Shown here: one piece after another, positions 3 through 32,373 of the stretch
Position numbering within the stretch: position 1 is the first letter of the stretch
Layout of the letters: the number at the start of each line of letters is the position of its first letter
DNA from: Candidatus Thorarchaeota archaeon
Lineage (GTDB): Archaea > Asgardarchaeota > Thorarchaeia > Thorarchaeales > Thorarchaeaceae
Assembly: GCA_046758445.1 (NCBI GenBank)
Contig: JBHIAE010000022.1
Location: 1-49,179 of the forward strand
Length of the DNA: 49,179 bases
Reading direction: 5' to 3'
Position numbers and translations under genes: made by a program
The notes under the pieces: model-generated
Database searches by the model: none
What the model saw: the letters and a program-made list of their open reading frames with translations, nothing else
Told to the model about the DNA's origin: nothing

Positions 3-3000
3 GCTGAGGTTCAGAGTTTTGGAGACCAGTTTTCAGTATCTAATGCCTCTCAGGTACAATGGAACAGCTACTATTTCGTTGCTGTTCCAAATGGCTACGA
101 AGACTACTTCTTCTTCAATACCACGAAGCATAGCGCAAGGGTCATAGACATCGTGTCCGAGCCTCGCTATCCAAGTACCGATTTCACGTTCTGGTCGACA
201 AGCAGTGAGAGTTTGAACGTTTCAGTGTATAGTGGTGTGACGGGAACCTATCAGAACGGCTTCTGGCGAATTCAAGGACACTCGGCCAACATTGTCCAGG
301 AACTTCAGATGTGGACCGGAACGTCTTGGTCTCCCTCTTACATCTACCGAGCTAATGATAATGTACGATTTAGAGCACAGCTTGATACTTCCTTCAACGG
401 CGCCACAGTAACCTTTGTAGTCCGTGATCCAACGAGCGCCATATGGGACACACTGACAGCTCAAGTAGTGGCCGGCTACGCAGAAACATCTGACGTGAAC
501 TTGGATGCCTTCACTGCGACCGTAGGTGAATGGACAGTTCAGGCCTATGCGAATGATTCGATTTCTGGTGGCCCCGTTCAGAATGTGGGCCTATACTCAC
601 GAACATTCGCTGTTGAACACAGCACCGACATGTATGTTATCTATCCTAGGGAGTCTGTAGCTAGTTGGACTCGGAACCTCACATACGGTCAAGACATGCT
701 TCTCCAACTCCGAGTAAACGACTCTGACAACGGTGACTTACTTCCGGGTGGAGATGCAACATTCAATTGGACCACAGGTACTGAACCGCTCAACGACATG
801 GGGACTGGAGAATACAGCACTGTCCTCAATACCGCAGACCTAGGTGTTCCTGGTCGATATGCGATTGCCATCTACTGGAATCGACAGAACTATGATCCTA
901 TCTCGAAGGTCTTTGTAATCAATGTTGTTGAAGAAACGACCCTTCAGTCGCCCAGTGCTCCAGGGGTCACCGTCCCCCACGGTTGGAATGCAACTCTAGA
1001 GCTATTCTTTGCTGACTCTTCAGGGTCAGGAATCCAAGATGCGATATTGACATGCAACTGGACTGATTCTCCCTACTACATAACCCCTGAAGTCGGCGAA
1101 CCAGGGAACTACACACTGACCATAACCACCTACAATTCCGTTCTCGATACATTTGCAGTGCTAGTAAAAGCTCAGAAAGACTTCTACGTGACCTCTCAGA
1201 TTACGCTCTTTGTTGAAGTTAGACAATTGTTCACTTCTGTTTCGGTCTCACACAGCATCTTCAGTCTGCCAATTGGATATCAGGAGTCTATCACTCTGAC
1301 TTATTGGGACACTGACCATGATTTGCCGATCTTGGGCGCGGAGAGCTCTATCTGGACCAACTGGTCAGACTATCACCAGTTTGGCGATCAGAACTACACG
1401 GTTGCGATGGTTTCGCCTGGAGTCTATGAGATAGTATTCTTCTCTATAGAAACAGACACAATAGGCACAAACGCAGTACGATTTGAGGTTACTCGCTTTG
1501 GATATCAGAATCACACTTTCGAAGTCACCGTGGACGTTTCAACCCATCTAACTTCATTCAGACTTGACAACCCTGTGGAGCCGACACCGTTCACGGTCGA
1601 CATCGCTATCCAGGTCACCTACTTTGATGAATCTACGTCGACAGGAATCGTCGGACCAGACGTTCTGATTTACGCAACAACACCAGGCATCAGTCCGTTT
1701 CTCTACACTGTCACGAACGGTTCAGCTCAAGGGTCGTATGTCATAACGATTCCTGCCAACCAATGGGGCGACATTGGATGGAAGGACTTGACGCTCTATG
1801 CAAACTGGACAGGACCGCGCAGCAAGTTTGACAATCTTACTTTGGATGTCAGCGTTAGGATTTCCGGTTCGCCTGCAGACCTCTTCATTGGACAGAGTCC
1901 CGTTTCCACTCCTTACGGGGAGAACATCAATTTCACGGTCGTCTACTGGGACGTGGGCAACAGTACCGGAATAGTGAACGGTACTGGACCTTACGCATTC
2001 AACGTTACGATACGCGTAGATGTACTAACACCGGGCCAAACACTCACTCAGGCACTGATGATCATAACTGAGGTTGACTACATCAACAGACCCGGGGAAT
2101 ATCGTATCGTGTTCAACACCTCTCATCTAAGTGGGCTAATTGGATGCGAGTTGAAGATTTGGTTCAATTGGACCAGGGGTGCCATGCCTCTCTATGAGAA
2201 TAGGACTCTACTATTGACGGTCTATTCAACGTATCGTCAGACAGTTGTGGATACTACAAGTCTCCCTGTGTCTCCATTTGATGAGAAAGTGAACCTCACC
2301 ATTGCTTACAAAGATGTCCTCACTGGTGCCAACATCCAAGACAGCGGTAGTCTGTCGATAACAACGCCTGGCTATGCGTTCAATGTAATATACGATGGCG
2401 ATGCCACAGCGCTCTTCTTCATCGAGGTAGATACTCTTCTGTTCACTTCTCCAGGGACATATAGCTTTCAGGTTGTGGTTGAGTGGTCTGGGGGCCCCTT
2501 CTATCAGAATCGTACGGTCGACATTCTCATCACTGTTCGAGAGAGATACACCTCATTAACCCATGGTTCCTATGGACAAGTGCAGTATGGCAACAATCTG
2601 ACACTGGTGTTTACCTACACCGACCTAGATGATTTCACAAGTGTAGGCATGAATGGCGGAACGCTGACCGTACCAGGACTGGTTGGGTTCTATGATATCA
2701 CGGACAACGGCGACGGCACATATACATTAGAGCTAGGGACAGATGCATTCCCATCAGTAGGAACTTTCGTCGTCAATGTCTCAATTGTTTACGGAGGAAC
2801 CCGTCACTGTGCGGATGCCACAGATTTCTTCCATCTCACTGTTGTGGAGCGAAGGACCCAACTCACGAGTGATCCTCCAGACCCAGCACCCTTCCTGACC
2901 CAGGCGAATATCACAGTTCACTACATTGACGATAACACGGCCTCAGGAATTGCGGGGGCAGACGTCTACGCGACATGTGCCACTGCCACTGAGCCCCTAT

Positions 3001-6000
3001 TGTTGAACACAAACTATTGGGTCGACGACTTGGGTGGAGGCAGCTACCAAATCAGAATGTCCACGGTAGCACTTGGCAACTTCGGATCCTACACTATAGA
3101 AGTGACTGCAAATTGGACGGGTACTCCATTCTACATGGAACGTGCAAGAAGCGTTGACATTGAGGTTTCACGGCGACCTGTTGGTTTCACAGTTTCAAGA
3201 TCGCCTCTAAACACGCCTTTCCTCGAGAACGTGACATTTGAGATAACAATCTCGGATTCACGGGACGGGACTCCAATAACCGTAGATAAATCGACGCTCA
3301 TCCTGAGTCATAATGGCGGCATTGCTATTCTAAACTCGGAATACAGCATCAGTGGATCCAATGGAGTCTACTTGATTTCGATAAACTCGACTGTTCTCAC
3401 TCCGGTTCTCGTCACCGGTCATCCGATAGAGGTCAAGTTCTTCTGGGGTGACATGGTTCCATACTATGCCAATGCTACTACTGCGACTCAGGTAAACATT
3501 GGTCCGCGCTTTACACAGGGAAGAGTGCTTTCGACTCCTGCAGCCTTCTACTCATTCAACCTGAGTGCAGTCATTGAGTACAGCGACTATCTAACAGGAA
3601 GGCCGATTCCTAGTGCTTCGGTTACCTTCCTCTGTCTGAACGACTCTTCATTTTGGAGCGATATCATTCCTCTAGGCGATGGGAGTTACAAGATTCTCGT
3701 TGATACAAATGATCTCTCTGGCATTGGACGCTATTACTTCATGGCCAACTTCACCTGGACTGGCCCTCCTTACTACGACAATGTCTACGGTCTTGAGTTC
3801 AGTGTGGTTGTGAATCCAGTTTCAACCAGCCTCAATTTCGTACTACTGCCCGGTGTGACCTACTACCTCGGAGACATCGTCGTAGGGAACATTACCTTTA
3901 CCGATATCCTGGAGGGTCGTGGAATTGATGGAGCCATCATCACGAGTGACTGGAACTCAACATACGCTCCGTCTATTGCACTCATCACCCCTCTAGGGAA
4001 TGGTATCTATCGAATGTCCATAAACACCTCCGGCCTTGACGCACAGGTCTATCCCTTTACTGTGAGTGCATTCAAGCTTCTGCATCTAAATAGGTCAATA
4101 ACCGCCGACGTATTCCTGGCAGCAATTCCAGTCGAGATAGAGCTGGTCTTTACTCCGACGAATCCTGAGTGGGGGGAACCGGTAGAGCTGAGTGCAAACG
4201 TAACAGATGCTAGAAATGGGAATCCAGTCCTTCCAACTATCGCGGACCCGGAGCCGGTGAACCTGACAATCTCGGGAACAACCTACGTCATGGTACATCA
4301 GGGTGGCGGAATCTACAACATTACGATACCTACTGCAGGCTTTGTAGCCGGTGAGTACACACTGAGAGTCAGATGTGCTCTGCTTAACCATGAATCAAGA
4401 CAGAAGGACTTCCAAATGAGAATCTACAAGGTCGCCTCGAAGATCTCAGCATCCCTCGACCCACAAGTGGCAGTTAACGGCCAGACAGTCACGGTTGAAG
4501 CCGACTATCTTATCCTTTCAAATAACTCGCCAATTGGGATAGGAGTAGTGACCTACAGCTGGATTGGCGGCTTTGGTAATCTAACATGGGTGCCCGCTCA
4601 ACAGAAGTATGTCGCAAGCTTCATGGTTAGTAATGCTGCAGTTGGAAACCACCAGATTCTGATTCAGGCGACTTCAAGCGTCTACAAGAGCGTGAGTACA
4701 CCAATAACGATCGAGATTACAGAAATCACCACTTCATTGACAGCATATCAGGGAATCACTGTACTATCTGCCGTGTCCGGAGACACGGTCAACGTGACAG
4801 TCTATATGAACAACACAGCCCTCGGTCTGCCGGTCACAGGTGCGTCTGTTGCGTACAGCATTCCAGGAGCCGCCGGAGACCTCACAGAAATCGGTGGTGG
4901 TTACTATTCAGCGGATGTGTCTACAGGAACACTTCAAGTGGGCGAATGGATTCTTGGTGTTTCGGGAGCAGCGCCTGGCTTTACTCCATCTTCGACCCAG
5001 TTCACTATTACAATTCTGAAGATTCCCACAATAGTCGAGATACTAGGCGAAGCACTGATTGGCGAGTACTATGGTCGAAACGTCACCTTCCTCTTGCGTT
5101 TCCATGACATCCACAATGACGTCGGAATATCTGGTGCAACTGCGACGTATGTTCTCGAGCTAACGGGCGGCACACTCCAGGAGATGGGCAATGGTACCTA
5201 CTCGCTGACAGTCAACACGACCTGGGTTTCAGCCGGAATGCATTCTCATGACATTTCTGTGACTTTCCAGAAGAACCTGTACGACTATGCTTATGGTACT
5301 GTGAAGCTGGTGTCAATGCCAATTCCTACTGAGGTGATTGGCGCGGTCGAAGCCGATGTTCCCGTGGGTGACGATTACACCCACGTATTCCAGTTCAACG
5401 ATACTCTCCACAATGAGTTGTTGGATAATGCTACTGCTATTGCATTCTGGGATTTCGCACCAGTTTCTCTTACACCGCTCGGTGGAGGAGCATACAGATT
5501 CGGACCAACAGAGGCCAATCTGTCAAGCAGGCTAGATGTTCGAACTACACCGTACAGGATCAGGATCCAATTCAGCAAGGCTAACTACAGTGTTGAGGAA
5601 ATCACGTTCATGCTAACGATACGAGAGATAAGGACCGAGTTGAGAGTTGAACCACTTCCATCTGCCATCTACGTGCAAGAGGTCTTCTATGTCCAAGTGA
5701 CATTCTGGGACTTGGACCACGACGTTGCTATACCTGGTGCCTTCAACTCTACCACTGGCCTGGACAACTTGCCTGAGTTCGCAGAAGACTATGGAGATGG
5801 AACGTATCTGTTTGCATTTCTTCCGCCAGCGGTTTCCTCGTATGAACTTGTGATCACCCTGAGCATGATGGACTACCAAGATGCTTCAGAAGTACTGTTC
5901 ATTCAGGCCGAGTTCACGCCTGAAGCTCAGACTCTAATGCGTAGCTTCATGTGGGGTGGCATTCTCCTCATCTTGATCGCTGGACTTGCATCAGCTTATG

Positions 6001-6575
6001 TCAGAGTTTGGTCAGTTCCAAAGCTACTGAGGACCTTGAGACGAATGGTCAGTATGCTGCGCAAGGGTCAGATTCCTGCGCCCGCAGACGTGCGCGATCG
6101 GAGGGCGGTCATACTTGAGAATATGAACGAGGATTTGGCACCTGTTGGACTTTCGAAGGAGTACGAAGACGTAGCTCCTTCCACTGTCGAAGTAGAAGCA
6201 TTAGATGTTGAAAGACTACTCGAGGAGCTACGTGTGGTCATTGGACTGACAGAGGAAGACGTGACAGTTCTTCGTCACGATTTGGATCGAATGCGGCCTA
6301 GCGAGAGAGCAGGCTTCATTGGAGAGGTTCTACGTCAGGAGCGAGCTAGGAGGGCTCGGGAGCTCGCAGAGGCGGAACTGGTGGCGGAAGAACCTGAAGC
6401 GGTCGTTGAAGCCGAGAGAAGACTCACCGAGGAAGAGCTTGAACATCTCAGAGAAGAGCTGATCAAGATGGGCATAGAACCGTCTGAGGCCGACCTGATG
6501 GTAGAGCAGGCAAGGTCCCTGACCAAGGCGGAGATAGACGCTCTGCTTGATCAGATAGGAGGTTTGAAGGAATGA
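3..6575 (+). CDS. Giant single-pass surface protein, A-type paralog (A1); 5'-partial
   Basis: Frame is open from position 3 (AEVQSFGDQFSVSNASQVQWNSYYFVAVPNGYEDYFFFN..., aligning to ~residue 400 of the paralogs), so the GTG at 153 is not the true start. 17 ~100-aa Ig-like repeats (D-x-G-N/D-G-x-Y motifs), many N-x-S/T sequons, TM helix at ~5944-6010, acidic helical cytoplasmic tail ending IGGLKE. Confidence 0.9.
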   Translation, partial: AEVQSFGDQFSVSNASQVQWNSYYFVAVPNGYEDYFFFNTTKHSARVIDIVSEPRYPSTDFTFWSTSSESLNVSVYSGVTGTYQNGFWRIQGHSANIVQELQMWTGTSWSPSYIYRANDNVRFRAQLDTSFNGATVTFVVRDPTSAIWDTLTAQVVAGYAETSDVNLDAFTATVGEWTVQAYANDSISGGPVQNVGLYSRTFAVEHSTDMYVIYPRESVASWTRNLTYGQDMLLQLRVNDSDNGDLLPGGDATFNWTTGTEPLNDMGTGEYSTVLNTADLGVPGRYAIAIYWNRQNYDPISKVFVINVVEETTLQSPSAPGVTVPHGWNATLELFFADSSGSGIQDAILTCNWTDSPYYITPEVGEPGNYTLTITTYNSVLDTFAVLVKAQKDFYVTSQITLFVEVRQLFTSVSVSHSIFSLPIGYQESITLTYWDTDHDLPILGAESSIWTNWSDYHQFGDQNYTVAMVSPGVYEIVFFSIETDTIGTNAVRFEVTRFGYQNHTFEVTVDVSTHLTSFRLDNPVEPTPFTVDIAIQVTYFDESTSTGIVGPDVLIYATTPGISPFLYTVTNGSAQGSYVITIPANQWGDIGWKDLTLYANWTGPRSKFDNLTLDVSVRISGSPADLFIGQSPVSTPYGENINFTVVYWDVGNSTGIVNGTGPYAFNVTIRVDVLTPGQTLTQALMIITEVDYINRPGEYRIVFNTSHLSGLIGCELKIWFNWTRGAMPLYENRTLLLTVYSTYRQTVVDTTSLPVSPFDEKVNLTIAYKDVLTGANIQDSGSLSITTPGYAFNVIYDGDATALFFIEVDTLLFTSPGTYSFQVVVEWSGGPFYQNRTVDILITVRERYTSLTHGSYGQVQYGNNLTLVFTYTDLDDFTSVGMNGGTLTVPGLVGFYDITDNGDGTYTLELGTDAFPSVGTFVVNVSIVYGGTRHCADATDFFHLTVVERRTQLTSDPPDPAPFLTQANITVHYIDDNTASGIAGADVYATCATATEPLLLNTNYWVDDLGGGSYQIRMSTVALGNFGSYTIEVTANWTGTPFYMERARSVDIEVSRRPVGFTVSRSPLNTPFLENVTFEITISDSRDGTPITVDKSTLILSHNGGIAILNSEYSISGSNGVYLISINSTVLTPVLVTGHPIEVKFFWGDMVPYYANATTATQVNIGPRFTQGRVLSTPAAFYSFNLSAVIEYSDYLTGRPIPSASVTFLCLNDSSFWSDIIPLGDGSYKILVDTNDLSGIGRYYFMANFTWTGPPYYDNVYGLEFSVVVNPVSTSLNFVLLPGVTYYLGDIVVGNITFTDILEGRGIDGAIITSDWNSTYAPSIALITPLGNGIYRMSINTSGLDAQVYPFTVSAFKLLHLNRSITADVFLAAIPVEIELVFTPTNPEWGEPVELSANVTDARNGNPVLPTIADPEPVNLTISGTTYVMVHQGGGIYNITIPTAGFVAGEYTLRVRCALLNHESRQKDFQMRIYKVASKISASLDPQVAVNGQTVTVEADYLILSNNSPIGIGVVTYSWIGGFGNLTWVPAQQKYVASFMVSNAAVGNHQILIQATSSVYKSVSTPITIEITEITTSLTAYQGITVLSAVSGDTVNVTVYMNNTALGLPVTGASVAYSIPGAAGDLTEIGGGYYSADVSTGTLQVGEWILGVSGAAPGFTPSSTQFTITILKIPTIVEILGEALIGEYYGRNVTFLLRFHDIHNDVGISGATATYVLELTGGTLQEMGNGTYSLTVNTTWVSAGMHSHDISVTFQKNLYDYAYGTVKLVSMPIPTEVIGAVEADVPVGDDYTHVFQFNDTLHNELLDNATAIAFWDFAPVSLTPLGGGAYRFGPTEANLSSRLDVRTTPYRIRIQFSKANYSVEEITFMLTIREIRTELRVEPLPSAIYVQEVFYVQVTFWDLDHDVAIPGAFNSTTGLDNLPEFAEDYGDGTYLFAFLPPAVSSYELVITLSMMDYQDASEVLFIQAEFTPEAQTLMRSFMWGGILLILIAGLASAYVRVWSVPKLLRTLRRMVSMLRKGQIPAPADVRDRRAVILENMNEDLAPVGLSKEYEDVAPSTVEVEALDVERLLEELRVVIGLTEEDVTVLRHDLDRMRPSERAGFIGEVLRQERARRARELAEAELVAEEPEAVVEAERRLTEEELEHLREELIKMGIEPSEADLMVEQARSLTKAEIDALLDQIGGLKE

Positions 6576-9500
6576 AGGTCAGGACAAGAATGCTCGTTGT
6601 AACTCTGATGGCACTCCTAATGCTAGTCAGCGCCAATGTGATGAGTAGTCCATGGACGTCAGAATTCGGCGGCATCAATGAGTTCGCATCTTTAGACCCA
6701 GATACTTCTCAGAACAAAGAAGATGCAAGAATGCCGCAATCTCCAATCTTCTCTTTGTCCGAGCAGGGTCTGACTGAATGGTCGGGTCAGTCCACCGAAC
6801 TGCCCACGATGGCCTATGGCAATCGAATAGATATGTTCGAGGACAATCAGAACAGATACTTCCCTTCAAACGGTTCAACAAGCGATACCTCAGTCTTTGT
6901 GCCGATGGGAGCGGGATGGGAAGGTCAAGAGCTATTCGTCGAGGTCTATGAGCTTACCGAGAATAGAACTTGGTTTGTGGACCCGGAGATGGAAGTAGGT
7001 GGTGCCCCTTGGTCGTTGGGAACCGTATCCGTCGGAGGAGGTGCAGCTCCGGAGGCAAACTGGCTCCCTGACGGTCACGGAAGCGGAAACGACTGCGTAG
7101 AATTCAGGATGACGAGTCCAGATGGAGACCCTTCAACCGGAGAGAGAGCCTATGCACGACAGAACGTCGCCGTAGACCGCGGGGATGTTGTCTGGGCTGG
7201 ATTCAGACTAGACTACTGGATTGACTCCGCCTGGGGCGCAGACGGATTCGTGGCAGTATACGTGTCAATTGAAACAAATGACTATACTCAGCGAGTTTGG
7301 CAGAGGTCCTTTGCAGATGTGACACAGGCTCAGACTTGGTTTGACAGTGGACTTGTTGTTCTGCAGGACTTGAGCATCTTCGACCTATCAGATGGTCTAG
7401 ATATAGAAGTGGGTCTGTATAGTCAGCAGTCTGTGAACTACTGGCCAGACCTTGATCCCGAGGCAAGAGTCGACAATGTTGAACTATACATAATGACTCT
7501 TACAGATCCCAGCGATGTGAACCTCCAGGTAAATGGGCTGGACGTGAATGATTTTGTGGTTGGAGCTTCAACGATTCCTGGGCTCGGCAATCGAACACAC
7601 GTTCCTGCCACGGAATGGACTTCAAATCCATTGCAAGTCAACTTCACATGGACACCCAGTCCTTCAACACCAGATCCTGATAGAGAGATCAGAGTTGACT
7701 TTAGCGTAAGAACGACTCTCTACGCCAGAGGCGCCGGGGCAACTGTTACGACACAAGATCCGGCAGCCTTCGGGGAATCATTCACCGCATCAAATGCATC
7801 TGAAATAGAGTATCTCACATGGTTCCATGCAGATATCCCTGAAGGGTATGATGAGGAGTACTACTTCAACATCAGCCTTCCGGAGAATCGGGATGTTTAC
7901 TTCGTTGGATCTCCCCTTCTTACATCAGAGAATATCACCGACTGGGACGAGGGACATGGTCCAGGATGGTATGCAAACATCTCTGCATTCGAGCATCTGG
8001 ATAGATGGGGATACTGGCTGGTAAGGAGCCATGGGTCAAACATGATCACAAATATCCTCATGGTGAATTCCACGACAGGTCGGACATCTGAGTTTCTTGG
8101 TTTAAGAGCACACGATACAACCAGATTCGTCGTAGAAGTGGGTGCTCAGTTTGCTGGCATTGAAGTGAATCTAACGGTGTATGACCCCTCAGGCACCGAA
8201 TGGTATTCAGAAGCAGCTATCGTGAATGGGACCGGATACGCGGAAACAAGAGAATTGACATTTGGAGTGAATGCTACCGCTGGTCAGTGGCTAGTGCAGG
8301 CCTTGTGCAATAACAGCATGGCTGGCTCAGCATGGAACAAGACGGGCTTCTTCAGTAGGTCCTTTGAAGTGACGCATGCATCCTTCTCGGAATTGCTCAA
8401 TCCAGCAGATGCAGTCGTTACTTGGACCACCAATGTGACTCGGCCCGACCTCTTTCTTGTGAGGATTCGCATAAACGACAGTGACATACCTTCGATCGCA
8501 GTTTCTGGAGGCCAGATGAGCTACAATTGGACGACTGGTACAGAGTACTTCAGTGACAGTGGAACCGGGCAGTACACAGTGACTCTTGACTCGGGCGACC
8601 TCGCACAGAAGGGTGAATACACTATCAATATTGATTGGGTACACCCATACTTTGACGCGATTTCAGACGTTCTTACAGTCTATCTGAATCTCGATGCGGA
8701 GATAGTCCTCGAGGTTCCTGACTCTCCGGGCCTATCGATACCAAGCGGCTACAACGAGTCATTCAGAGTTAGGTTTGAGGACGACATTGGGAATCCTATT
8801 GACTATGGAATAGTCGACTGCAATTGGTCGAGCTACTACAGTGTTAAACCCGTTACTGGCTCACCAGGAAGCTACATCTTCTGGCTAAACACAACCTTCG
8901 TCGGTCTGGGAGAATACGTGATTGCGGTAACTGGAGAAGCCAGCTTCATTCTCCCACAGACATACCTGGTCTACGTTGAAGTGAGAGAACTATACACTCG
9001 TATTTGGTATCTTCAGAACGTACTTGAAATCCCGCTTGGTGAGGCAAGTGACTTTACTGTTGACTGGATCGATGCTGACCACGAATTGCCACTTATAGGT
9101 TTGAACAACTCCATTGAAGTCAACTGGACTGGTTCATACTCTGTTGATGAAATCTCACCAGGTACCTACAACATTACTATGTTCACGGAAGACGCCGACA
9201 CCTTGGGAACATATCCTGTGAAGGTGACCTTGTCAGGTTCATTGATGCAGAACCAGTCCTTCGTGATACAAGTGATTGTGAGACCGCATAATACCTTCTT
9301 CACGCTTGATGAACCGGTAGGCGACACTCCATACGGGGAGGAAGTCGTCATACTCGTATTCCACCTCGATACAGACTTCTCCACTGGGACCTCGAATGCA
9401 ACTGGGGACTTGAGTATCTCAGTTACAACTCCTGGGATTGTTGGGCTTCAGTACGTAGTTTCTGACTCTACTTTGGGTGTAGGCCATTTCAACATAACAA

Positions 9501-12500
9501 TACAAAGTGGACAGTGGAGTACAGTTGGTTGGAAGAACTTGACAATCCAGATCAGCTGGACTGGGCCCTCGGAGAAATACCAGACAAAAACAATTCAGAC
9601 AACAGTCAGGTTAGTTGGCACACAGACCGACCTTTACCTTGAGGTTGCCCCTGTTGCAACCTACTATCTGGATAACTTCACCTTCTCAGCCATATTCTGG
9701 GATGTAGTCAACTCAACTCCAATCTCGAACACAACTGGAAATGTACTCGTGTCCATCACACCTATCGGACCCCAGAATCCTGTAAGCTTCAATGATTTCC
9801 TGATTTCCATTATTCAGGAAGGACCAACATCCGTGTTCTATCGGTTTGAGTTGAACAGCACACACCTCGAAGGCGTAGGCTCGTTCAATGTCGAGATCTT
9901 GTTCCAATGGAGAAGCGGCCGGCAGCCGTTCTATGAGAATAGGACTCTGGCCGTTGCTTTGCTTGTGCTTGAGCGACCGACGTATGTGGACTACGGGCCC
10001 GTTTCTTCCACACCGTATGGTGAAGAGGCAACGTATGTGTTCAGCTATGTCGATTCACTGAGCACTATGAAGATAAGAAACTCATCATCACTTCTTGTAA
10101 GTCTAAATGAGGGCGGAGTAAGTTGGAGTTTAGCATATGACTCAGCCCTCCGCACATTCACCTTGGTCATCGACACGACTAGCCTTGGTGCTGCTGGTCA
10201 ATACAATCTGCATCTCAATCTCACTTGGGTAGGTGAGCCATTCTATCAGCAGATACCAAGCCACACGTTCAGCATTATAGTCACTGTTCGAAGCACTCAA
10301 CTTGCGCATTTGTCATTCGCACCAGAGCAGTACGGTAATAACGTCAGCATTGAGTTCATCTTCACTGACCTGGTTGCTCAGAGCACCTCTGGAATGACAG
10401 GGCTTCTGTCCCTGAACATTACGAAAGGTTGGTACACAGTTTCCTATTTGGGCAATGGTCACTTCGTTGCTGTGGTGAATACATCCGCACCTGATTTCGG
10501 TTCTGATGGAGTATTCTCAATAAATGCGAGCATTGTGCCATCTGCTCCAAACTTCGCAAATGCACATGAAGTCTTCAGCTTCGCAGTACTCAAGCGATCG
10601 ACACAACTGCGCTACGAGAGTCCTGACCCGACACCGTATCTCGATCACGTCACTTTCGGGATTGCCTATAATGATGACAGCACAGGCCGGGGTGTGACTG
10701 GGGCGCAAATTGCTCTGGACTGCACCAATTCCTCTCAGTCCTTGGTTTTGAACAGCAACTACTGGTTGACAGAACTTGGGTCCGGTCAGTATCTCATTGA
10801 AGTCAATAGCACGGCTCTTGGGGCTATTGGCACTTACTTCCTGAATGTGACTGTATCCTATACAGGCGCTCCGTATTATCAGCCTGCAAGCAGAAACGTG
10901 AACTCCAGAGTGTCTGAGAGGGATACGCAGACCTTGATCACGCAGACTCCTGGTGAAACACCATTCCTAGAGAACATTACTCTAAGGTTCAGGTATGAAG
11001 ACTATCTCACAAAGGCCATGATTCCAATAGACAAGAGTCACGTCACGTTGACGCATGGAGTCACCCAAGATTTGATTCCATCCGGCAGCTACACGCTATA
11101 CGATTTCGGCACCTTCTTCGAAATACGCTTCAACTCCACTATACTCAACCCGACGACGCTAGTGACTGGGCATGAAATACAGCTCGAAATTGATCGAGGT
11201 GCAGGAGTTCCCTACTATGCTGTGAGCGGCGCGACGACGGTTGCGGCAACGATTGAGCGACCGACACAGATACTCTTCCCACTGGTGGAGGAGGTCCCGT
11301 ACTTCAGCAATATCACGATTGAGTTAGACTACATTGATTTCCTGTCGAGTCAAGGCATCGAGGGAGCGTCTATCGACATCGTCAGCAACAACTGGACAAT
11401 AGCACTATACCAAGTAGAGGAGGTCGGCGGAGGATCCTATCGTGTCTATATCAACACGACTCTATTTGGTGGCGTCGGGACTGCTAACCTCGACATCACT
11501 GCAACTAAAGGTGGAGTGCCCTTCTACAGTACTAGGATGACTACCGGTGTTCCTGCCAGCATTCGACCAATCATTACGACGCTTCAGGCCGATCCTCCAT
11601 CTCCCGGTTCGACCGCAGTAGGAGTCCCGATAGTGGTCATCCTCACACTTGTAGACTTTGACCATGGTGTGCCACTGGAGGGGGCAACACTCACGTCTGA
11701 TTGGACTACCTTATACAGCACAAGCCATCAGATTGTAGAGGTCGGAAATGGTGTCTACAACCTGACTCTTGATATGACTGGACTTACCGCTCAGGACTAT
11801 CCGTTCACCGTGCAGGCTCAGAAACTCTACTACCAGACAACGACGGTTGATGTATCGGTGACGCCTGGTGCGTCAACTTTCACTATTGTTCTGGCCAAGA
11901 CTGCAGTGTTTGCAACCTGGGGCGAGATACCCGACATTCGTCTGGACGTCCGGGAGAGTTACTACTTCAGCCTCGTACCTGGAGCCAATGTGACTCTACT
12001 TTGGAACGGTACAATCTTCCAATTTGATGATCTTGGAAATGGCACATACACACTCGATCTAGACACGACTGCATCAAGCTTCGGCATCTACTCGCCACAG
12101 ATCTCTGTTTCAAAGCAGTACTATCAGACTCGCCAGACATCATTTACCCTCGTAGTTTCGAAAGCGCCTGGCCATATTCTGAGCTTGGACCCAGATACAG
12201 GAGAAGTCAGAACCTTCCGCAACATAGTCCTCAACACGGCAACTGATATCATCGTATACCTTAATGATACAATAAGAGGCGACCCTGTAGTGGCAACCTC
12301 TGTGACCATGGAATGGAACAACACTGTCTACGTGCTGGTTGCGAATGGAACGCCAGGATTCTATACTGCAAACCTGGATGTCACTGGATTCGACATAGGC
12401 CCCTACGAGCTTGTCATGTCTGCGGCATCGTTAAATCATGTATTCCTCGACGCCGTGGTTGATATCAATGTGGACCCAATCTCAACAGACATAGGACTAG

Positions 12501-14305
12501 CCAGTGGCGCAACAGCACTCTTTGTTGTACAAGGTGATGTCCTCAGCATACTCGTTGAGTACAATGATACCTACTATGGTGGCTTCATCTCCGGTGCCAA
12601 TGTGACTTACACAATAGGGGCCTTGGCCGGAACTTTGACGGAGGAGGCCAATGCCACCTATAGCGCGGTGATTGACACAAGTGATCTACCTGCTCAGACC
12701 ATCTTCCTTCGTATCACTGGAGCGAAGACTGACTATGCGACCACAACAAAGACTCTGATAGTCACAATTCAACCAGTACCCACCGAAGTAACAGTTGATA
12801 CGTTGCTGAATGAGGGATATCATGATGACGTCGTTGACTTCACTTTCTACTATAATGACACTCATCGTAATGCACCTATTGTCGGGGCCTTTGCAACTGT
12901 TTCATGGGACGGTGGTGCCGGCGACGTCACGGACCTTGGCAATGGATCTTACTTGGTAGAGATCACATTGACTCCAACTTCACCACGCCTCTATGACATC
13001 AATGTGGCATTTACTCTGCAGAACTTCACCACAGCCTCAACTATAGTGAGAGTTGTCATTCTGGCAACTCCTGCAATGATCGTTGGACCCAGTGACTACA
13101 GCGTCCCTGTCAATCACACCGCTCAGGTCATCTTCAATGTGGAGAACACTCTTACGAACGAAACCATCCCAGGACTCAATGGTATAGCGTACTGGGATGT
13201 GGCAGGTGCAGTGCCTCTCACTGTGCTTGAGAATGGAAGTTATGCAATCGAGATTCCCGATGATCTGCCCATGGCTACATACAGAATCGAGATAGGATTC
13301 ACAACATCAGTATACAGCATGACGACAAAGTTCCTTGACCTAACAGTTAGACCAGTAAGAACGAGGCTTTTGACTGCAAACACTACAATCTCGACTTCAC
13401 CTGGGAGTGGAATCACAATCGTCATTACCTATCTTGACGTTGACCACGGGACAGGCATCTCTGGCGTCATTCCCACTGTCACCTACTTTGAAGAGAACAT
13501 AACATACTTCGAAGATAGACTCGTTGAGTCAAGTCCAGGTGTTTATGAGTTGCCATTCCTGGTGACTGCCGGAAGAACGTTCACAATAACTGTCACCTTT
13601 GCCAAGGACCAACACGAAACAAAGAGCATCGTCTTCACAATCAACTCCGACATCTCGGCGGAACAGATTCTTGTTCAGAACTTGGCCCTTGGTGGAGGCT
13701 TCATCTTCATCATCCTTTCAATTGCTATTGTGGCCTATGTCAGGGTATTCAGCATTCCTAAGATGGTTAGAATCATTAACAAGATGATCGCTGCCTTGGC
13801 TGGCGGCAAGATTCCGAAACCGGCTGACGTACCGAATAGAGAAGCCATGGTGTTGGAGATTGTCAATGAGGGAATTCAGCCGGCTGGGATAACAAAGACT
13901 CCGGGCGACCTTCCAGGTCCGAGTATAGAGGCCATAGTCCCAGAGATAGAGGACTTGCTGGAACATCTTGCCGCGATCACCGGTCTGAGAGAGGCAGAAA
14001 TCGAGGCATTCCGTCAGGATCTTTCGAGAATGAAGGCGAGCGAGAGACCTGGTTTCATTAGAGAAGTAATCGAGCAGGAGGAGGCTCGTCGAGCGGAGGC
14101 CCTTGAAGAAGATGAGGAAGCAAGAAGACCCGAAGAGGCGAAGGAGGTACTCGAACAGAAGCCGGAGGAGCTTGAGGAGCTAAGAGTCAAGCTGCGGAGG
14201 AAGGGCATGTCCAATGACGAGATCGACATCACAATCGAACAGGCCAAGGGACTCTCCAAAGCAGACCTCGAGGCCCTCTTAGACAGTCTTGGTATCAGGC
14301 TGTAG
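6572..14305 (+). CDS. Giant single-pass surface protein, B-type paralog (B1), 2577 aa
   Basis: Signal peptide MKVRTRMLVVTLMALLMLVSA; jelly-roll-like head; 17 Ig-like repeats; TM (LALGGGFIFIILSIAIVAYV); tail ending GLSKADLEALLDSLGIRL; ATGA overlap with A1 and AGGAGG at 6557-6562. Confidence 0.92.
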   Translation: MKVRTRMLVVTLMALLMLVSANVMSSPWTSEFGGINEFASLDPDTSQNKEDARMPQSPIFSLSEQGLTEWSGQSTELPTMAYGNRIDMFEDNQNRYFPSNGSTSDTSVFVPMGAGWEGQELFVEVYELTENRTWFVDPEMEVGGAPWSLGTVSVGGGAAPEANWLPDGHGSGNDCVEFRMTSPDGDPSTGERAYARQNVAVDRGDVVWAGFRLDYWIDSAWGADGFVAVYVSIETNDYTQRVWQRSFADVTQAQTWFDSGLVVLQDLSIFDLSDGLDIEVGLYSQQSVNYWPDLDPEARVDNVELYIMTLTDPSDVNLQVNGLDVNDFVVGASTIPGLGNRTHVPATEWTSNPLQVNFTWTPSPSTPDPDREIRVDFSVRTTLYARGAGATVTTQDPAAFGESFTASNASEIEYLTWFHADIPEGYDEEYYFNISLPENRDVYFVGSPLLTSENITDWDEGHGPGWYANISAFEHLDRWGYWLVRSHGSNMITNILMVNSTTGRTSEFLGLRAHDTTRFVVEVGAQFAGIEVNLTVYDPSGTEWYSEAAIVNGTGYAETRELTFGVNATAGQWLVQALCNNSMAGSAWNKTGFFSRSFEVTHASFSELLNPADAVVTWTTNVTRPDLFLVRIRINDSDIPSIAVSGGQMSYNWTTGTEYFSDSGTGQYTVTLDSGDLAQKGEYTINIDWVHPYFDAISDVLTVYLNLDAEIVLEVPDSPGLSIPSGYNESFRVRFEDDIGNPIDYGIVDCNWSSYYSVKPVTGSPGSYIFWLNTTFVGLGEYVIAVTGEASFILPQTYLVYVEVRELYTRIWYLQNVLEIPLGEASDFTVDWIDADHELPLIGLNNSIEVNWTGSYSVDEISPGTYNITMFTEDADTLGTYPVKVTLSGSLMQNQSFVIQVIVRPHNTFFTLDEPVGDTPYGEEVVILVFHLDTDFSTGTSNATGDLSISVTTPGIVGLQYVVSDSTLGVGHFNITIQSGQWSTVGWKNLTIQISWTGPSEKYQTKTIQTTVRLVGTQTDLYLEVAPVATYYLDNFTFSAIFWDVVNSTPISNTTGNVLVSITPIGPQNPVSFNDFLISIIQEGPTSVFYRFELNSTHLEGVGSFNVEILFQWRSGRQPFYENRTLAVALLVLERPTYVDYGPVSSTPYGEEATYVFSYVDSLSTMKIRNSSSLLVSLNEGGVSWSLAYDSALRTFTLVIDTTSLGAAGQYNLHLNLTWVGEPFYQQIPSHTFSIIVTVRSTQLAHLSFAPEQYGNNVSIEFIFTDLVAQSTSGMTGLLSLNITKGWYTVSYLGNGHFVAVVNTSAPDFGSDGVFSINASIVPSAPNFANAHEVFSFAVLKRSTQLRYESPDPTPYLDHVTFGIAYNDDSTGRGVTGAQIALDCTNSSQSLVLNSNYWLTELGSGQYLIEVNSTALGAIGTYFLNVTVSYTGAPYYQPASRNVNSRVSERDTQTLITQTPGETPFLENITLRFRYEDYLTKAMIPIDKSHVTLTHGVTQDLIPSGSYTLYDFGTFFEIRFNSTILNPTTLVTGHEIQLEIDRGAGVPYYAVSGATTVAATIERPTQILFPLVEEVPYFSNITIELDYIDFLSSQGIEGASIDIVSNNWTIALYQVEEVGGGSYRVYINTTLFGGVGTANLDITATKGGVPFYSTRMTTGVPASIRPIITTLQADPPSPGSTAVGVPIVVILTLVDFDHGVPLEGATLTSDWTTLYSTSHQIVEVGNGVYNLTLDMTGLTAQDYPFTVQAQKLYYQTTTVDVSVTPGASTFTIVLAKTAVFATWGEIPDIRLDVRESYYFSLVPGANVTLLWNGTIFQFDDLGNGTYTLDLDTTASSFGIYSPQISVSKQYYQTRQTSFTLVVSKAPGHILSLDPDTGEVRTFRNIVLNTATDIIVYLNDTIRGDPVVATSVTMEWNNTVYVLVANGTPGFYTANLDVTGFDIGPYELVMSAASLNHVFLDAVVDINVDPISTDIGLASGATALFVVQGDVLSILVEYNDTYYGGFISGANVTYTIGALAGTLTEEANATYSAVIDTSDLPAQTIFLRITGAKTDYATTTKTLIVTIQPVPTEVTVDTLLNEGYHDDVVDFTFYYNDTHRNAPIVGAFATVSWDGGAGDVTDLGNGSYLVEITLTPTSPRLYDINVAFTLQNFTTASTIVRVVILATPAMIVGPSDYSVPVNHTAQVIFNVENTLTNETIPGLNGIAYWDVAGAVPLTVLENGSYAIEIPDDLPMATYRIEIGFTTSVYSMTTKFLDLTVRPVRTRLLTANTTISTSPGSGITIVITYLDVDHGTGISGVIPTVTYFEENITYFEDRLVESSPGVYELPFLVTAGRTFTITVTFAKDQHETKSIVFTINSDISAEQILVQNLALGGGFIFIILSIAIVAYVRVFSIPKMVRIINKMIAALAGGKIPKPADVPNREAMVLEIVNEGIQPAGITKTPGDLPGPSIEAIVPEIEDLLEHLAAITGLREAEIEAFRQDLSRMKASERPGFIREVIEQEEARRAEALEEDEEARRPEEAKEVLEQKPEELEELRVKLRRKGMSNDEIDITIEQAKGLSKADLEALLDSLGIRL

Positions 14306-14629: not shown

Positions 14630-17600
14630 GTGAGATCGAAGAAAGCTCTCATGCTGCTCCTGATTCTAATGCCACTGGTCTCTGGTGCTTTTCTATCCCA
14701 TTCGACAACGCATGATCTTAGTCCTCAGGTAAGACTTGCCGATGTCGGTGACGGTGAGGTAATTGAGTTGGGCCCTGACGAAACCCTGCACAAGTTTACT
14801 CTGTCTGACATGCCAACAGTGAGAGAAGGTACAGGTGCGCCACTGAATGGTTCAGAATACGGGTCACGCACTGACATGTTCCCATCTGAATCCATAATGT
14901 ACAATTCAACTAGTAGATCTACAAACCACGTGAATCTGACAGTGCCAATAGCGAAACACTGGGAGGCCTACGAGGTCTTTGCCAACGTTACTAGTCTCAC
15001 TGAGAATCGAACATGGCTTCTCAATCCCAGTTTTGACAATTCCGGAAACTGGACATATGGTACTCACAACGAGATGCCTGGAGTGAACGCAATCACCTCT
15101 GAATGGGACTCGAATGGACACGGTGCGGGTGATGGTTCAACGAGGCACCAAATCTTCGGTGACCCGTCGCGAACATACGACTTAGGCGACAAGGGGTACG
15201 CTACACAGAACATCTCATTGTCACTTGGTGAGATAGTATGGGTTGGTGTGAGTCTTGATTACTACGCCAGATTTCCGCCCTTGCCCGGAACACTGACTGG
15301 TTACTTCGAGTTGTTCGTATCATTAGGAGACCCAGATAAGGACCCAGACGATGATGGCGAACGGGATCCTGACTATTTCTGGTCAATTCAGTTCAATGAG
15401 ATCCAACAGGACTCTGTATGGTACTCAACTGGAATCGTGGAAGTAGACACTTCAATCACCGATTTCCAGAACGCCGAAATATGGGCTGGTCTCCGTTCAG
15501 TCGACGATGTTCGGTATGGTAGAAATAGGGATCCAGAAGGACGCCTTGACAACATTGAGATCTACATCAAGTCCAAGGCGACCCCGGGCCAACTGAATCT
15601 GAAGACAAATGATAAAGATGTAGAGGGCACGACTCCTGGACAAGGTCAGCTGAGATTTCCAGTGGGAATCAATGAGATGAAGGGGACTGCATACGCGGAC
15701 TTCTCATGGACGCCAATACCTGCGACTCCAGATCCCAATCGAGACATCACTGTCGACTTGGATGTTACACTTACTGCATACGCTTGGAGCTACAATGACT
15801 TTACGAAGAATAACACGGCTTCATTGACAAACGGGTCGTTATACTCCGTGTGGAACGCCACAGATGTAGATTGGGAAACCAATTTCCTAGCCATTGTCCC
15901 TGAGGGGTATGAGAATGAGTATTTCTTTAGTCTGTCAATCCCTGATAACAGGGATGTGTATACGGTGGCTGAACCGGACTTCCGGCACGTCAATCTGACA
16001 AGTGGGTGGACTTTGGGAGATCCTCTCGATGGTGCTGTCAACGTTTCTGTGTATGATATCACAACTACCAGTCAGAATGGCTTCTGGCTTGTAAAAGGCA
16101 CGTCACCAAACATGATTACGAATCTCCAAGTATGGAACGACGATACAAGCCAATGGTTGGGTACCGAGAAGTTCGGCGCAAACAATAACACCCGTTTTAG
16201 GGCCACGTTGAGTTCCTCCTACGCCGGAAACACCGTATACTTCACGGTCTATGACCCTGACGGAGCCGTATGGATTGAGCAACAAGCAGTAGTCGATTCT
16301 TCCGGGTACGCCACTACGAGTATGGTAAACCTCGATGCCTACAACGCTTCAGTGGGTGCATGGGAAGTACAGGCCTTTGTGGATGACTCAGTTTCAGGTG
16401 GAGGCTCAATTAACAACCTCGGATACTACCGAAGAGGCTTCAGTATCGGGCATGGCACCAGTATGTCAGTCAAGTATCCGGTGGGCTCAGACGTTTCTTG
16501 GAATGTCACAGTCGTTCACGGCACGTGGGTGCTGCTTCAACTTAGAGTCAATGACACCGATAACGGAGATTTCCTGCCGGGTGGAACAATGACCTATTCA
16601 TGGGCAGCTGGTTCCGGTGCTGTCAGCGATCTAGGTACAGGCGAATACAGTGTAACGCTCGATACGGGTCTCCTCGCTAGCAACGGTGAGTATGACGTAA
16701 CACTCCAGTGGAACAAGGGATACTACGACCCGCTGGTTCGCACTTTCAAGATTGTTGCGATCCTTAACACAGATCTCTTCTCCAGTGATGCTCCCGGAAT
16801 TGACGTCCCTAGTGGATACATAGCCCAGTTGAGTTTCAGCTTTCGAGATCAGTATTCGCAAGGTATCGCAGATGCTGAACTGACGACTAACTGGTCTTAC
16901 CCGTATACGGTTACACAGGTAATGGGACAACCAGGGGACTACACCGTTGAATTGAACACAACTGGGGCCCCTCTAGAAACATTCCTTGTCAGTTTCACAG
17001 CGAGCAAGGACTACTATGAAACTCGTACGGTAATCCTGTCCATCCAAGTCCGGGAATTGCACACCTCGGCAATCCCGTCCACGAGTCTCCTATCATTGCC
17101 AGTCGGCTATATCAAATCATTGAGAATTACTTATACTGATTCAGACTCTGGAAGTCCAATCAGCGGAGCTGCTTGGGCTATCAGGTGCAACTGGTCCGAC
17201 ATTCACTCCTTCGGTGACCAGAACTACACAGTTGTCGAAACCGGGACACCGGGAGAGTATGAGGTGACCATATACTCTGAGGATACCGATGTACTTGGTA
17301 CGTACAGCGTGGTGTTCAATGTCGAAATGCCTGGTGCTCAGAATCACACCTTCATCGCTACACTGGTTTTGAAGACGCATCTCACTTCATTCTCTTTGGT
17401 GAACCCCATAGATCCCACCCCATACACTGGAAATGTCCGCATTCTCGTCTACTACTACGACGCGGATGCCGATGCCGGCATAGAGAACGGGACGTCTGTC
17501 GGCTACTTTGTTGATATTGAAGTTAGGAGCTCCACCTTGCCATTGGTCAATTTCGCTTGGGCAAATGGAACGGTGCATGGGGAGTACATCCTCCTACTAT

Positions 17601-31332: not shown

Positions 31333-32373
31333 TCAGTCTACTTGCTTTGACCTTCGCCTTCTAGTCACGATGCCCAGAGCTAGGAATCCAACAATGACAC
31401 TGAACCACAGTGTGACGAAGCGTATGATTATCGTGGCAGCTCCCGCTATCACTTCTGCTGTCATTTCAGGCAGGCCCAAGAGTAGAATGATCAATGCAAT
31501 ACTGGTGATCTCGTAGGTTCCGAGACCTCCAGGTAGGAAAGACAATGCGCCTACTACAGATGCAGTTGAATGAATGAAAGTGGAGACCATCAGGAGATTC
31601 AATGAAGATACGGTCAGAGAGGGAAGTCCCACTCCTGTGAGGAGGGAGAGCAGCAACCACAGTTCTATGCACTCCATGAACCAACCGGGAACACTGATTG
31701 TAGTGCTGAGGACCATTGGTTTCGGGGAGAGGGTCTTTGCCATTGTATCTTCAATCAGTCCAACGCTGTTCTTGAATCTCTTGAGAGGCCCAAAGGAAGT
31801 CATCCTTCCAAGAAAGATGTTGTAGAATCTAGGTTGACCTAGCATTATTGCTCCTACCAAGACCACTCCGCCGAGAATGAGCACAGTTCTCAATTGATCC
31901 ACGCCTGACAGTCCAATCACAAGGCCGGCCATAGCAAGGATTACCATTGCCAACATGTCCGTTACTCTCTCTGAAGCCACCACTGGTACCGTCTTGGCAA
32001 TGGGTGTTCCATCCAAGTCATTGATGAAGTAGCCTTTGATGGCCTCACCTATCTTTCCCGGAGAAGTAGTAAGTGTGAAACCTGCCAGGAATATGCTGAA
32101 GCTGTCTGTGTGTGAAAGATTCACGTCAATCTGTCGTAGATAATACTGCCATTTGATGTATCGAAGCAGGTAGTTACCAAAGGAGAGCACCATCATGACT
32201 GGGAGGACCCACCACCAATCTATGGCCGCAATAGCAGCGGTTACTCGTTCAAATTCGAAGAAGAACATGATGGCTAGGTAGACCACGACTGCAGCCAAGA
32301 CGAACACTATGACCTTCCGGAGACTCACAAAAGAAACTGCAGAACTCTCAGGTTCATTGGCGGGCTCAGTCAT
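31333..32373 (-). CDS. LPG_synthase_TM / UPF0104 flippase-like multi-pass membrane protein
   Basis: Motifs LRYIKW, SPGKIGEAIK, ERVTD, LPGGLGTYE, IIRFVTLW; about 8 TM segments; ATG at 32373 gives an ATGA overlap with the PHP gene (ORF track starts at 32382). Confidence 0.85.
   Translation of the reverse strand: MTEPANEPESSAVSFVSLRKVIVFVLAAVVVYLAIMFFFEFERVTAAIAAIDWWWVLPVMMVLSFGNYLLRYIKWQYYLRQIDVNLSHTDSFSIFLAGFTLTTSPGKIGEAIKGYFINDLDGTPIAKTVPVVASERVTDMLAMVILAMAGLVIGLSGVDQLRTVLILGGVVLVGAIMLGQPRFYNIFLGRMTSFGPLKRFKNSVGLIEDTMAKTLSPKPMVLSTTISVPGWFMECIELWLLLSLLTGVGLPSLTVSSLNLLMVSTFIHSTASVVGALSFLPGGLGTYEITSIALIILLLGLPEMTAEVIAGAATIIIRFVTLWFSVIVGFLALGIVTRRRRSKQVD

Follow-up and report, generated by a model that had tools for sequence, protein, structure and literature searches.

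A conserved, predicted helical tail with a putative docking role on giant surface proteins of Thorarchaeota

Introduction

A membrane helix followed by a few basic residues is the usual C-terminal end of archaeal surface proteins. The described systems closest to the giant proteins considered here are the C-terminally anchored archaeal S-layer and cell-surface glycoproteins such as the Pyrobaculum SLP, which resemble them in having a signal peptide, a very long, sequon-rich ectodomain of tandem Ig-like domains, and one membrane helix at the C-terminus, followed by basic residues. The tail of the colossal Ig-repeat SLP of Pyrobaculum is short and highly basic (bioRxiv 10.64898/2026.08.21.746120). 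The Thorarchaeota giants are unlike these glycoproteins in that the membrane helix is followed by about 190 net-acidic residues, which are predicted to fold and to include two helical modules.

Eukaryotic type-I adhesion receptors (integrin alpha/beta, classical cadherins) provide a works-like analogy: they too combine a conserved tail with a single pass through the membrane and a large, glycosylated ectodomain, and the giants resemble them further in being encoded here as a conserved paralogue pair. However, most integrin and cadherin tails are peptides that are either short or disordered, while the Thorarchaeota tail is predicted to be a folded helical domain. No sequence or fold relation between these tails was found, and no NPxY was seen in the tails of the giants.

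A strongly conserved tail of 190 residues that is predicted to be folded is found on every giant surface rod of one family, in a lineage near the origin of eukaryotes, and gives these proteins a receptor-like topology. Full-text literature searches turned up no description of the giants or their tail.

Results

Four giant open reading frames (ORFs) lie on the + strand of the window, i.e., the whole stretch of 49,179 nucleotides that was analysed, at 3..6575 (A1, 5' end open), 6572..14305 (B1), 14630..22408 (A2) and 22405..30117 (B2). A hydropathy scan gave one C-terminal hydrophobic segment in each, followed by about 190 residues; in A1 this single transmembrane segment is at 5934..6017 (+), residues 1978-2005 of the open frame 3..6572. 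All three complete ORFs have a signal peptide at the N-terminus, and each giant ectodomain holds 54-66 N-x-S/T sequons compared to 0 in the tails. Because the residues just past the membrane segment are strongly basic in the giants, the tail is placed in the cytoplasm, and on this sequence reading 6000-6575 encodes the cytoplasmic tail of A1, a giant type-I membrane glycoprotein. The corresponding tails of B1, A2 and B2 are at 13739..14305, 21839..22408 and 29551..30117, all on the + strand. When the A1 tail was searched against its own genome, it matched 6000-6572, 13739-14293, 21839-22405 and 29551-30105, within a few bases of the four tails in the original prediction. Two further copies were found on other contigs of the same genome (C48 and C83), which gives six giants in total. 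A PGF-CTERM/archaeosortase signal was considered and rejected, as none of the four C-termini has a PGF-type motif before the membrane helix and about 190 residues follow it.

The ectodomains of the giants gave only weak matches, to MG2 and Invasin_D3. The A and B paralogues are ancient and coupled in translation, and both have retained the tail. At least 25 genomes preserve their arrangement as a gene pair with an overlap of stop and start. Unpaired giants bear the same tail as paired ones, and the conserved differences that separate A-type from B-type tails are small. We regard the giants as one lineage-specific superfamily of Ig-repeat surface proteins, with the tail as its C-terminal signature.

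The four tails are pairwise 41-65% identical and share 61 invariant columns, which bears out the conserved cytoplasmic domain of about 190 residues that had been proposed, near-invariant core included. The invariant columns include the juxtamembrane P-K, a G-x-I-P-x-P turn and the core D-L-x-R-M-x-x-S-E-R-x-G-F-I-x-E-V-x-x-Q-E-x-A-R-R-A. Eleven core positions are invariant in 18 tails from different genomes (D94, M98, S101, E102, F106, E109, V110, Q113, E114, R117 and A119). The tail had also been called the best conserved part of the proteins. This holds between the A and B paralogues, with 38-45% identity in the tail versus 18-42% in ectodomain blocks, but not within type, where the central ectodomain blocks of A1 and A2 are conserved as well as the tail. 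Compared with 12 orthologues, the B1 tail is generally the more conserved part (52-78% identical, ectodomain 45-62%), but the two values are equal in 2 of them.

Alignment and AlphaFold2 (AF2) model agree on a helical, modular tail with an acidic linker of variable length, as originally predicted. The whole-tail model has a mean pLDDT of 80, rising above 90 for model residues 70-120, and speaks for a folded tail over the disorder that had been named as the alternative. The tail begins with a basic amphipathic juxtamembrane helix at 6015..6062 (+; model residues 6-21, charge +5, hydrophobic moment 0.75), in which P7 and R11 are invariant across the 18 tails from different genomes. A K-G-x-I-P-x-P turn and a second helix (model residues 34-49) follow at 6063..6146 (+). 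Module M1, an orphan three-helix unit, spans 6207..6359 (+), with helices at model residues 70-81, 85-96 and from 100 onward at pLDDT >90, and contains the near-invariant D-L-x-R-M...A-R-R-A core at 6279-6356 (+). Its third helix is modelled at about 40 residues and projects past the bundle. The acidic linker at 6360..6428 (+) has a charge of -6; its first part is modelled as an extension of M1 helix 3, and pLDDT is about 50 at model residues 134-136. In tails of the C48/C83 type this linker is tens of residues longer. Module M2, a terminal three-helix bundle, occupies 6429..6572 (+) and was modelled on its own with a pLDDT of 89 and a pTM of 0.69. Net charge is -10 to -17 for the tails and -2 to -9 for M2 itself. 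The models thus describe the tail as a probably folded, all-helical and modular domain.

This domain gave no significant match to a described protein family or solved fold, and no catalytic motif was seen in it, as had been noted before. For whole tails against Pfam the best E-value was 5e-4 (CCDC47, 19.8 bits versus a cut-off of 27.7), nothing came near the cut-offs in NCBIfam, and 57 M1 and 89 M2 copies scanned singly against Pfam gave no family at E below 1e-4. The matches of tails or modules in Pfam and NCBIfam were all sub-threshold, to CCDC47, Bap31_C, RecX_HTH1/2, Pex14_N, MobC_2 and PSK_trans_fac. Among PDB sequence profiles, the whole tail matched RAP domain 3 at E = 0.004, and M1 and M2 matched designed helical repeats and designed TIM barrels only. 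With Foldseek, neither the whole tail nor M2 had a PDB match at E <= 0.001, and VIA-align gave flat lists in which Z fell from 6.5 to 4.4 (whole tail) and from 5.4 to 4.0 (M2). In the ESM Atlas, the shape search with the whole-tail model yielded nothing over the generic three-helix background and the feature search no usable match. The structure searches barely covered the first 66 model residues, and we consider their matches generic three-helix arrangements that carry no functional information. No characterised domain was significantly matched, and sequence profiles confirmed none of the folds that had been suggested as candidates, i.e., UBA, SAM, LEM/HeH and death-fold: UBA_9 appeared in 2 of 57 M1 copies (E = 0.038), SAP in 6 of 89 M2 copies (E = 0.018), and pyrin chains in the PDB reached E = 0.32. 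EAD1 matched one M2 copy only (E = 0.017).

M1 and M2 are both predicted three-helix units, and the original prediction saw in them a duplicated unit of about 40 residues. Our profile comparison did not confirm this, as hhalign gave a probability of 6% with 18 sequences and 42% at most with deep profiles (P = 2.6e-4 over 21 columns); the deep-profile match pairs M1 helix 2 with M2 helix 1, a register that differs from the one proposed. M2 does duplicate separately, which is new here: relatives of the tail carry 1, 2 or 4 copies, with charged linkers between them.

Also new here is the occurrence of M1 beyond the giants, namely in one STAND NTPase and in small soluble proteins. The NTPase, P0189, is detected by the tail profile (E = 5e-17), and M1 with its preceding helix forms its C-terminal end. 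The ORF of P0189 runs to the contig end without closing. Over residues 1-184 the protein aligns with an nSTAND5-HEAT protein (residues 389-571 of the latter; E = 3e-34), and the nearest Thorarchaeota homologues of P0189 have HEAT repeats where it has M1. None of six nSTAND5-HEAT proteins, nor a seventh ORF taken from one such locus, significantly matched the M1, M2 or whole-tail HMM. The small proteins P0208 and P0212 (185-191 aa) contain M1 and, by sequence reading alone, no evident membrane segment. All three are single metagenomic sequences on short contigs, and the N-terminal domain of P0208 was not found in 301 genomes of the phylum. In the present genome, which is 92.7% complete, M1 and M2 are confined to the six giants (the M2 profile found only the six tails), and searches for a soluble M1 protein and for homologues of the P0189 STAND region were negative. 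Across 40 genomes of the family, every listed M2 match fell within the ORF of a giant or within a short frame that a contig end has probably truncated.

The tail is narrowly distributed. A profile search of 1.84 billion representative proteins returned only 143 relatives, 90 of them at E <= 1e-30. Within Thorarchaeia it was found in 72 of 76 genomes of the family and in the one genome of the sister family (1/1), with about 1-14 matches per genome. Weak matches occurred in 15 of 19 genomes of a further family (f12), whose diverged form is tied to Hermodarchaeia through cluster names. In the Hermodarchaeia form M2 is lacking and two M1-like units are present, and the juxtamembrane motif is the best-kept part in this distant branch. 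Most other families of the phylum had no match at threshold (e.g., 0/28 and 0/68), and three others had single borderline matches (E about 1e-6). A search of viral contigs yielded relatives of neither the tail nor P0208. The stretch itself is present in just three DNA runs, all of them hydrothermal-vent metagenomes marked as a possible source of this DNA, and no RNA run with it was listed.

Discussion

Protein docking is the most likely function of the tail. A role in protein interaction is suggested because M1 is also found on a STAND NTPase and on small soluble proteins and because M2 occurs in one to four copies; such modularity is typical of docking domains. The basic juxtamembrane helix would lie on the inner leaflet of the membrane, and M1 together with the flexibly tethered, multipliable M2 would serve as docking modules that recruit a putative cytoplasmic partner. 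Such recruitment would link the cell interior to the surface rods, whose genes form conserved A-B pairs with coupled translation. We propose this coupling tentatively, as a plausible reading that may well be wrong. It is weakened because M1 and M2 are found only on the six giants in this genome. The conserved neighbour genes include no obvious cytoplasmic partner; the neighbours in synteny include a gene cluster of the lipid-linked glycan type and a gene resembling a membrane metalloprotease.

The confinement of the modules to giants would also fit tails that bind each other, A to B or M1 to M1, and cluster the giants from inside into a coat or lattice that needs no separate partner. The retention of the tail in both of the coupled paralogues is in line with this, as is the projecting M1 helix 3. 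Furthermore, a domain that is shared by receptors, a STAND NTPase and small proteins follows the pattern of homotypic STAND adaptor domains (death-like, effector-associated, Pfam EAD). However, no significant match to such domains was obtained, and the STAND fusion is known from one metagenomic contig and is absent from this genome, where the same domain was not found on a STAND NTPase and its partners. The small differences between A-type and B-type tails, and the presence of the same tail on unpaired giants, speak against tails that bind each other, and we consider such binding rather unlikely. A complex prediction for the A and B tails with separate alignments returned "no answer" (score 0.00) and is not counted either way.

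Returning to docking of a separate partner, a more specific version would make the tail the archaeal counterpart of an adhesion-receptor tail, which would recruit cytoskeletal, ESCRT or small-GTPase-type adaptors or a STAND-type NTPase and signal contact or force via the A-B rods. We judge this version to be distinctly unlikely. Being small, helical and soluble, M1 and M2 offer a concrete bait for what lies under the Asgard membrane, and a partner, if found, would show whether coupling between surface and interior existed in Asgard archaea.

Many surface proteins of one genome can share C-terminal sorting domains. The membrane segment, juxtamembrane helix and tail could accordingly form a biogenesis, sorting or retention signal for a lineage-specific machinery of insertion, glycosylation or quality control. 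This would account for a single C-terminal signature common to all members of a surface-protein superfamily in one lineage, and it is consistent with the preservation of the juxtamembrane motif in Hermodarchaeia and with the glycan-type cluster and metalloprotease-like gene in synteny. However, known sorting signals comprise about 25-35 residues, with few after the membrane segment, compared to about 190 here that are predicted to fold. M1 also occurs in proteins with no evident membrane segment, and the PGF-type motif is missing ahead of the membrane segment of the giants. There is thus only a slim chance that the tail is such a signal, and docking remains the preferred function.

Two readings that concern M2 are highly improbable. 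M2 could be a RecX-like or HTH-like unit, anchoring nucleic acid or a filament of the RadA type at the membrane: like the RecX repeats (PF21982, PF02631) it is a three-helix unit of about 50 residues that can be repeated in tandem, and weak matches recur, with sub-threshold Pfam RecX_HTH1 in 39 of 89 copies (E <= 1, best E = 2.4e-4) and RecX_HTH2 in 17 of 89. These matches reach 16.6-17 bits against a gathering cut-off of 26, no RecX chain is among the top structural matches (50 listed per model, best Z 5.4-6.5), and M2, unlike the RecX repeats, is acidic, within a tail that is acidic as a whole, belongs to a membrane protein and has charged linkers between its copies rather than packed copies. 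Nor is the last helix of A-type tails likely to mimic the N-terminal CheY-binding peptide of FliM (LSQAEIDALL) and dock a phosphorylated receiver, although its LTKAEIDALL is similar and conserved in A-type tails across genera and four stand-alone receiver domains are encoded in the genome: within the confidently modelled M2 bundle the string forms helix 3 and is not a free peptide of the FliM-N or CheZ-C kind (mean pLDDT 93 for residues 31-40 and 79 for residues 41-50 of the M2 model), most M2 copies differ in their third helix, which in the consensus of 89 copies starts with L-P-R and lacks the motif, and no CheW was found in this genome at its 92.7% completeness.

The tail represents an unannotated domain family that merits an entry of the Pfam type for M2 and another for M1 together with the helices that precede it. 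One NCBI label in use, "VapB antitoxin", may perhaps stem from matches of the PSK_trans_fac type.

Architecture of the giant proteins and conservation of their tails

The four giant surface-protein ORFs all lie within the first 30 kb of the window, on the + strand: A1 (3..6575, cut by the contig start), B1 (6572..14305), A2 (14630..22408) and B2 (22405..30117). The genome that bears them is 3.25 Mb in size and 92.7% complete, and the names given to close relatives of its proteins assign it to Thorarchaeota, an Asgard lineage. Both A-to-B junctions have a four-base overlap, and the A-B pair is duplicated in the window. The A-then-B order on the same strand is found again in at least 25 of 301 genomes sampled across the phylum, the two tails being spaced by about 7.7 kb. 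The three complete giants have an N-terminal signal peptide, and all four carry 54-66 N-glycosylation sequons in an ectodomain with weak Pfam similarity to MG2 and Invasin_D3, while no sequon was found in their last 190 residues. Each giant has a single hydrophobic segment about 190-215 residues from its C-terminus. As the residues that follow this segment are strongly basic, the tail, i.e., the C-terminus of about 190 residues, is assigned to the cytoplasm.

When the four C-termini were translated and aligned, every tail feature listed in the original prediction was seen. A basic helix opened by P-K stands immediately C-terminal to the membrane segment and is followed by a G-x-I-P-x-P turn. 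Next come the near-invariant core (D-L-x-R-M ... A-R-R-A), a variable acidic stretch and another module of helices. Identity among the four tails is 41-65%, and 61 alignment columns are invariant. A genome search with the A1 tail as query recovered all four where predicted, and additionally two copies on other contigs (C48 and C83), in which the acidic, proline-rich linker is much longer. The tail had also been described as the best conserved part of the proteins. This holds between A and B paralogues, where it is the best conserved block (38-45% identity, elsewhere 18-42%), and moderately between orthologues (52-78% versus 45-62% for the ectodomain, equal in 2 of 12). However, it does not hold within one type, where central ectodomain blocks are conserved equally with the tail.

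B1 and B2 are nearly identical in DNA sequence at their 3' ends (14231-14305 and 30043-30117), with 95% nucleotide identity over the last 25 codons. In this stretch the same codon is used at 88% of identical residues, against 35-67% further upstream and 40-44% between A1 and A2. Judged from these sequences, the pattern would be compatible with a recent conversion of one B tail by the other. The C48 giant is adjoined by a gene for a 259-aa protein (C48:957-1736, - strand; locus L005) which by eye resembles a RecA-superfamily (KaiC/RadB-like) protein.

Predicted structure and search for known domains

An AlphaFold2 model of the A1 tail, built from an 18-sequence alignment, has eight helices and a mean pLDDT of 80. 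The juxtamembrane helix (model residues 6-21) and a second helix (34-49) precede a three-helix module containing the near-invariant core, M1 (70-81, 85-96 and 100-139; pLDDT above 90 for 70-120), and a terminal three-helix module, M2 (144-156, 161-171 and 176-190). The pTM is low at 0.39, and the pLDDT falls to about 50 at residues 134-136; a flexible joining of the predicted modules is consistent with the low pTM. Modelled alone from 89 copies, M2 forms a confident three-helix bundle (pLDDT 89, pTM 0.69). The juxtamembrane helix has a charge of +3 to +5 and a hydrophobic moment of 0.53-0.77, and would lie on the inner leaflet. The net charge of the whole tail is -10 to -17.

The tail was predicted to be unrecognised, and it matches no described domain in sequence-profile or structure searches. 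Pfam and NCBIfam gave only sub-threshold matches on the tails. When 89 M2 and 57 M1 copies were scanned one by one, M2 had recurrent weak matches to RecX_HTH1 (39/89, best E = 2.4e-4), Bap31_C, RecX_HTH2 and Pex14_N, and M1 had no recurrent family match beyond MobC_2 (9/57). Among PDB sequence profiles, the whole tail matched RAP domain 3 (E = 0.004) and the single modules matched designed helical proteins. Foldseek against the PDB returned no match at E <= 0.001, and searches of the ESM Atlas with the tail no usable one. VIA-align against 48,161 chains gave flat lists of unrelated three-helix proteins, with best Z values of 6.5 (M1) and 5.4 (M2), both under the tool's own meaningful level for helical models. 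Given these searches, M2 is by predicted shape a generic small three-helix bundle and M1 an orphan. A full-text literature search found no description of the Thorarchaeota tail-bearing giants. Collectively, the tail is a genuine and so far undescribed cytoplasmic domain with strong conservation.

Even though a three-helix unit is predicted for M1 and M2 alike, the proposed origin of both by duplication of a unit of about 40 residues was not established. Profile-profile comparison gave 6% probability with a small alignment and 42% with deep profiles (P = 2.6e-4 over 21 columns), and the latter match pairs M1 helix 2 with M2 helix 1, a register different from the one proposed.

Distribution and module variation

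Run against 1.84 billion cluster representatives, the tail profile matched only 143 proteins at E <= 0.001, of which 90 reached E <= 1e-30. Among the 301 sampled genomes, the tail is present in 72 of the 76 from the window's family and in the only one from its sister family. Weak matches (E 1e-8 to 1e-14) occur in 15 of 19 genomes of a further family, and isolated borderline ones (E about 1e-6) in each of three others; most other families in the phylum had no match at threshold (e.g., 0/28 and 0/68). Since cluster names link a diverged tail form to Hermodarchaeia, the further family is probably this lineage. All tail-bearing proteins compared have a common repeat-type ectodomain similarity (22-33% identity, in several registers). 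On this sequence evidence, the tail is therefore read as the C-terminal hallmark shared by a single superfamily of giant surface proteins with Ig repeats, and not as a domain shuffled among unrelated proteins.

M2 was found in 40/40 near-complete family genomes tested, with 1-14 matches each. It is an independent repeat unit, present once in 195 of 207 proteins, twice in 3 and four times in 9; the four-copy tails, with short charged linkers between copies, are on proteins of 3,371-4,257 residues. In the Hermodarchaeia tail, the juxtamembrane motif and M1 are retained, a further M1-like unit is present, and M2 is missing. M1 also occurs outside the giants. Two metagenomic proteins of 185-191 residues (P0208 and P0212) carry it C-terminally, with no membrane segment evident in their sequence. 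A third, P0189, matches the tail profile (E = 5e-17) from the end of the juxtamembrane helix through the second helix and M1. Its residues 1-184 align with residues 389-571 of a Thorarchaeota protein (E = 3e-34) in which an nSTAND5-type P-loop NTPase is followed by HEAT repeats. As its ORF is open to the contig end, P0189 is taken as the 3' part of an nSTAND5-type NTPase, in which the tail module occupies the position of the HEAT repeats in the homologues. New here are the variation of M2 in copy number, the divergent Hermodarchaeia tail, the occurrence of M1 in soluble and in STAND-fused proteins, and the negative outcome of the duplication test.

The tail-profile search also returned four single-contig metagenomic proteins (P0197, P0205, P0216 and P0220) in which an M2 unit is fused to unrelated N-termini. 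By eye, these N-termini look like a RodZ-type HTH with a membrane helix, the signal of a lipoprotein, and fragments of UppS and of an OPT transporter. The four fusions are probably chimeras that arose in assembly or gene calling. The Ser/Thr/Asn-rich P0230 (457 aa) has four distant M2-like repeats (E = 7.7e-4), a sequence hint that the M2 helix-turn-helix core may be more widespread.

Possible function of the tail

The tail contains no catalytic motif. The explanation we rank first, although tentatively, is that its modules would dock a cytoplasmic protein partner, as their features are those expected of protein-docking modules: a pair of small helical modules that are rigid and conserved, an acidic, flexible tether that differs greatly in length, a varying number of terminal modules, and the recurrence of M1 on a STAND NTPase and on small soluble proteins. 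Ranked second and rather less probable is self-association of the tails. It is favored by two observations: A and B are conserved as a pair, and no M1 or M2 protein apart from the giants was found in the genome. A role in biogenesis or sorting comes third and seems improbable. The last helix of the A type resembles the FliM receiver-binding peptide, but this is probably coincidence; the string belongs to the M2 bundle in the model, is absent from most M2 copies, and CheW was not found in the genome. Nucleic-acid binding is unlikely because the tail is so acidic.

The nearest described proteins are the C-terminally anchored archaeal surface-layer glycoproteins, which have the same overall plan. 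In a colossal Ig-repeat protein of Pyrobaculum, the C-terminal membrane helix is followed by a short, highly basic tail (bioRxiv 10.64898/2026.08.21.746120). The Thorarchaeota giants are one architectural variant of archaeal surface anchors, to which a predicted folded tail of 190 residues is added. By virtue of this tail they have the same topology as eukaryotic adhesion receptors, but no homology to these is detectable.

Neighbouring genes

In five genomes, which represent three genera, a gene for a cytoplasmic nSTAND5-HEAT protein (about 1,080-1,180 residues) is located within about 3-18 kb of the A-B locus (L073:282-3524 in G299; also L074 in G128, L075 in G075 and L076 in G179). By coordinates, it is divergent and about 2.7 kb upstream of A in G299 and G128. 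Neither the window's genus (0/13) nor the largest genus (0/25) yielded a copy, which rules out its product as a general partner of the tail.

Downstream of B2, the genes at 31333-40742 (- strand; LPG_synthase_TM, PHP, UbiA, DUF362, Metallophos, SLOG and a 604-aa PIN-like protein) are syntenic beside the A-B pair in three genera. A 377-aa ORF (36648-37781, - strand) overlaps the SLOG gene; it has no Pfam match, and an orthologue was found only in a same-genus locus.

In three genera (G227, G233 and G055; L021:9606-11807 in G227, L023:263-2437 and L025:583-2757), the next gene upstream of A, in the same orientation, codes for a conserved protein of about 730 residues. This position is outside the window, which begins within A1. 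The G227 copy, the one read fully, has no Pfam match; it combines a signal peptide and a metzincin-like motif (HExxHxxGxxH) with a C-terminal membrane helix and a tail that is short and basic. The sister-family homologue (L027, G112) is about 6 kb further away.
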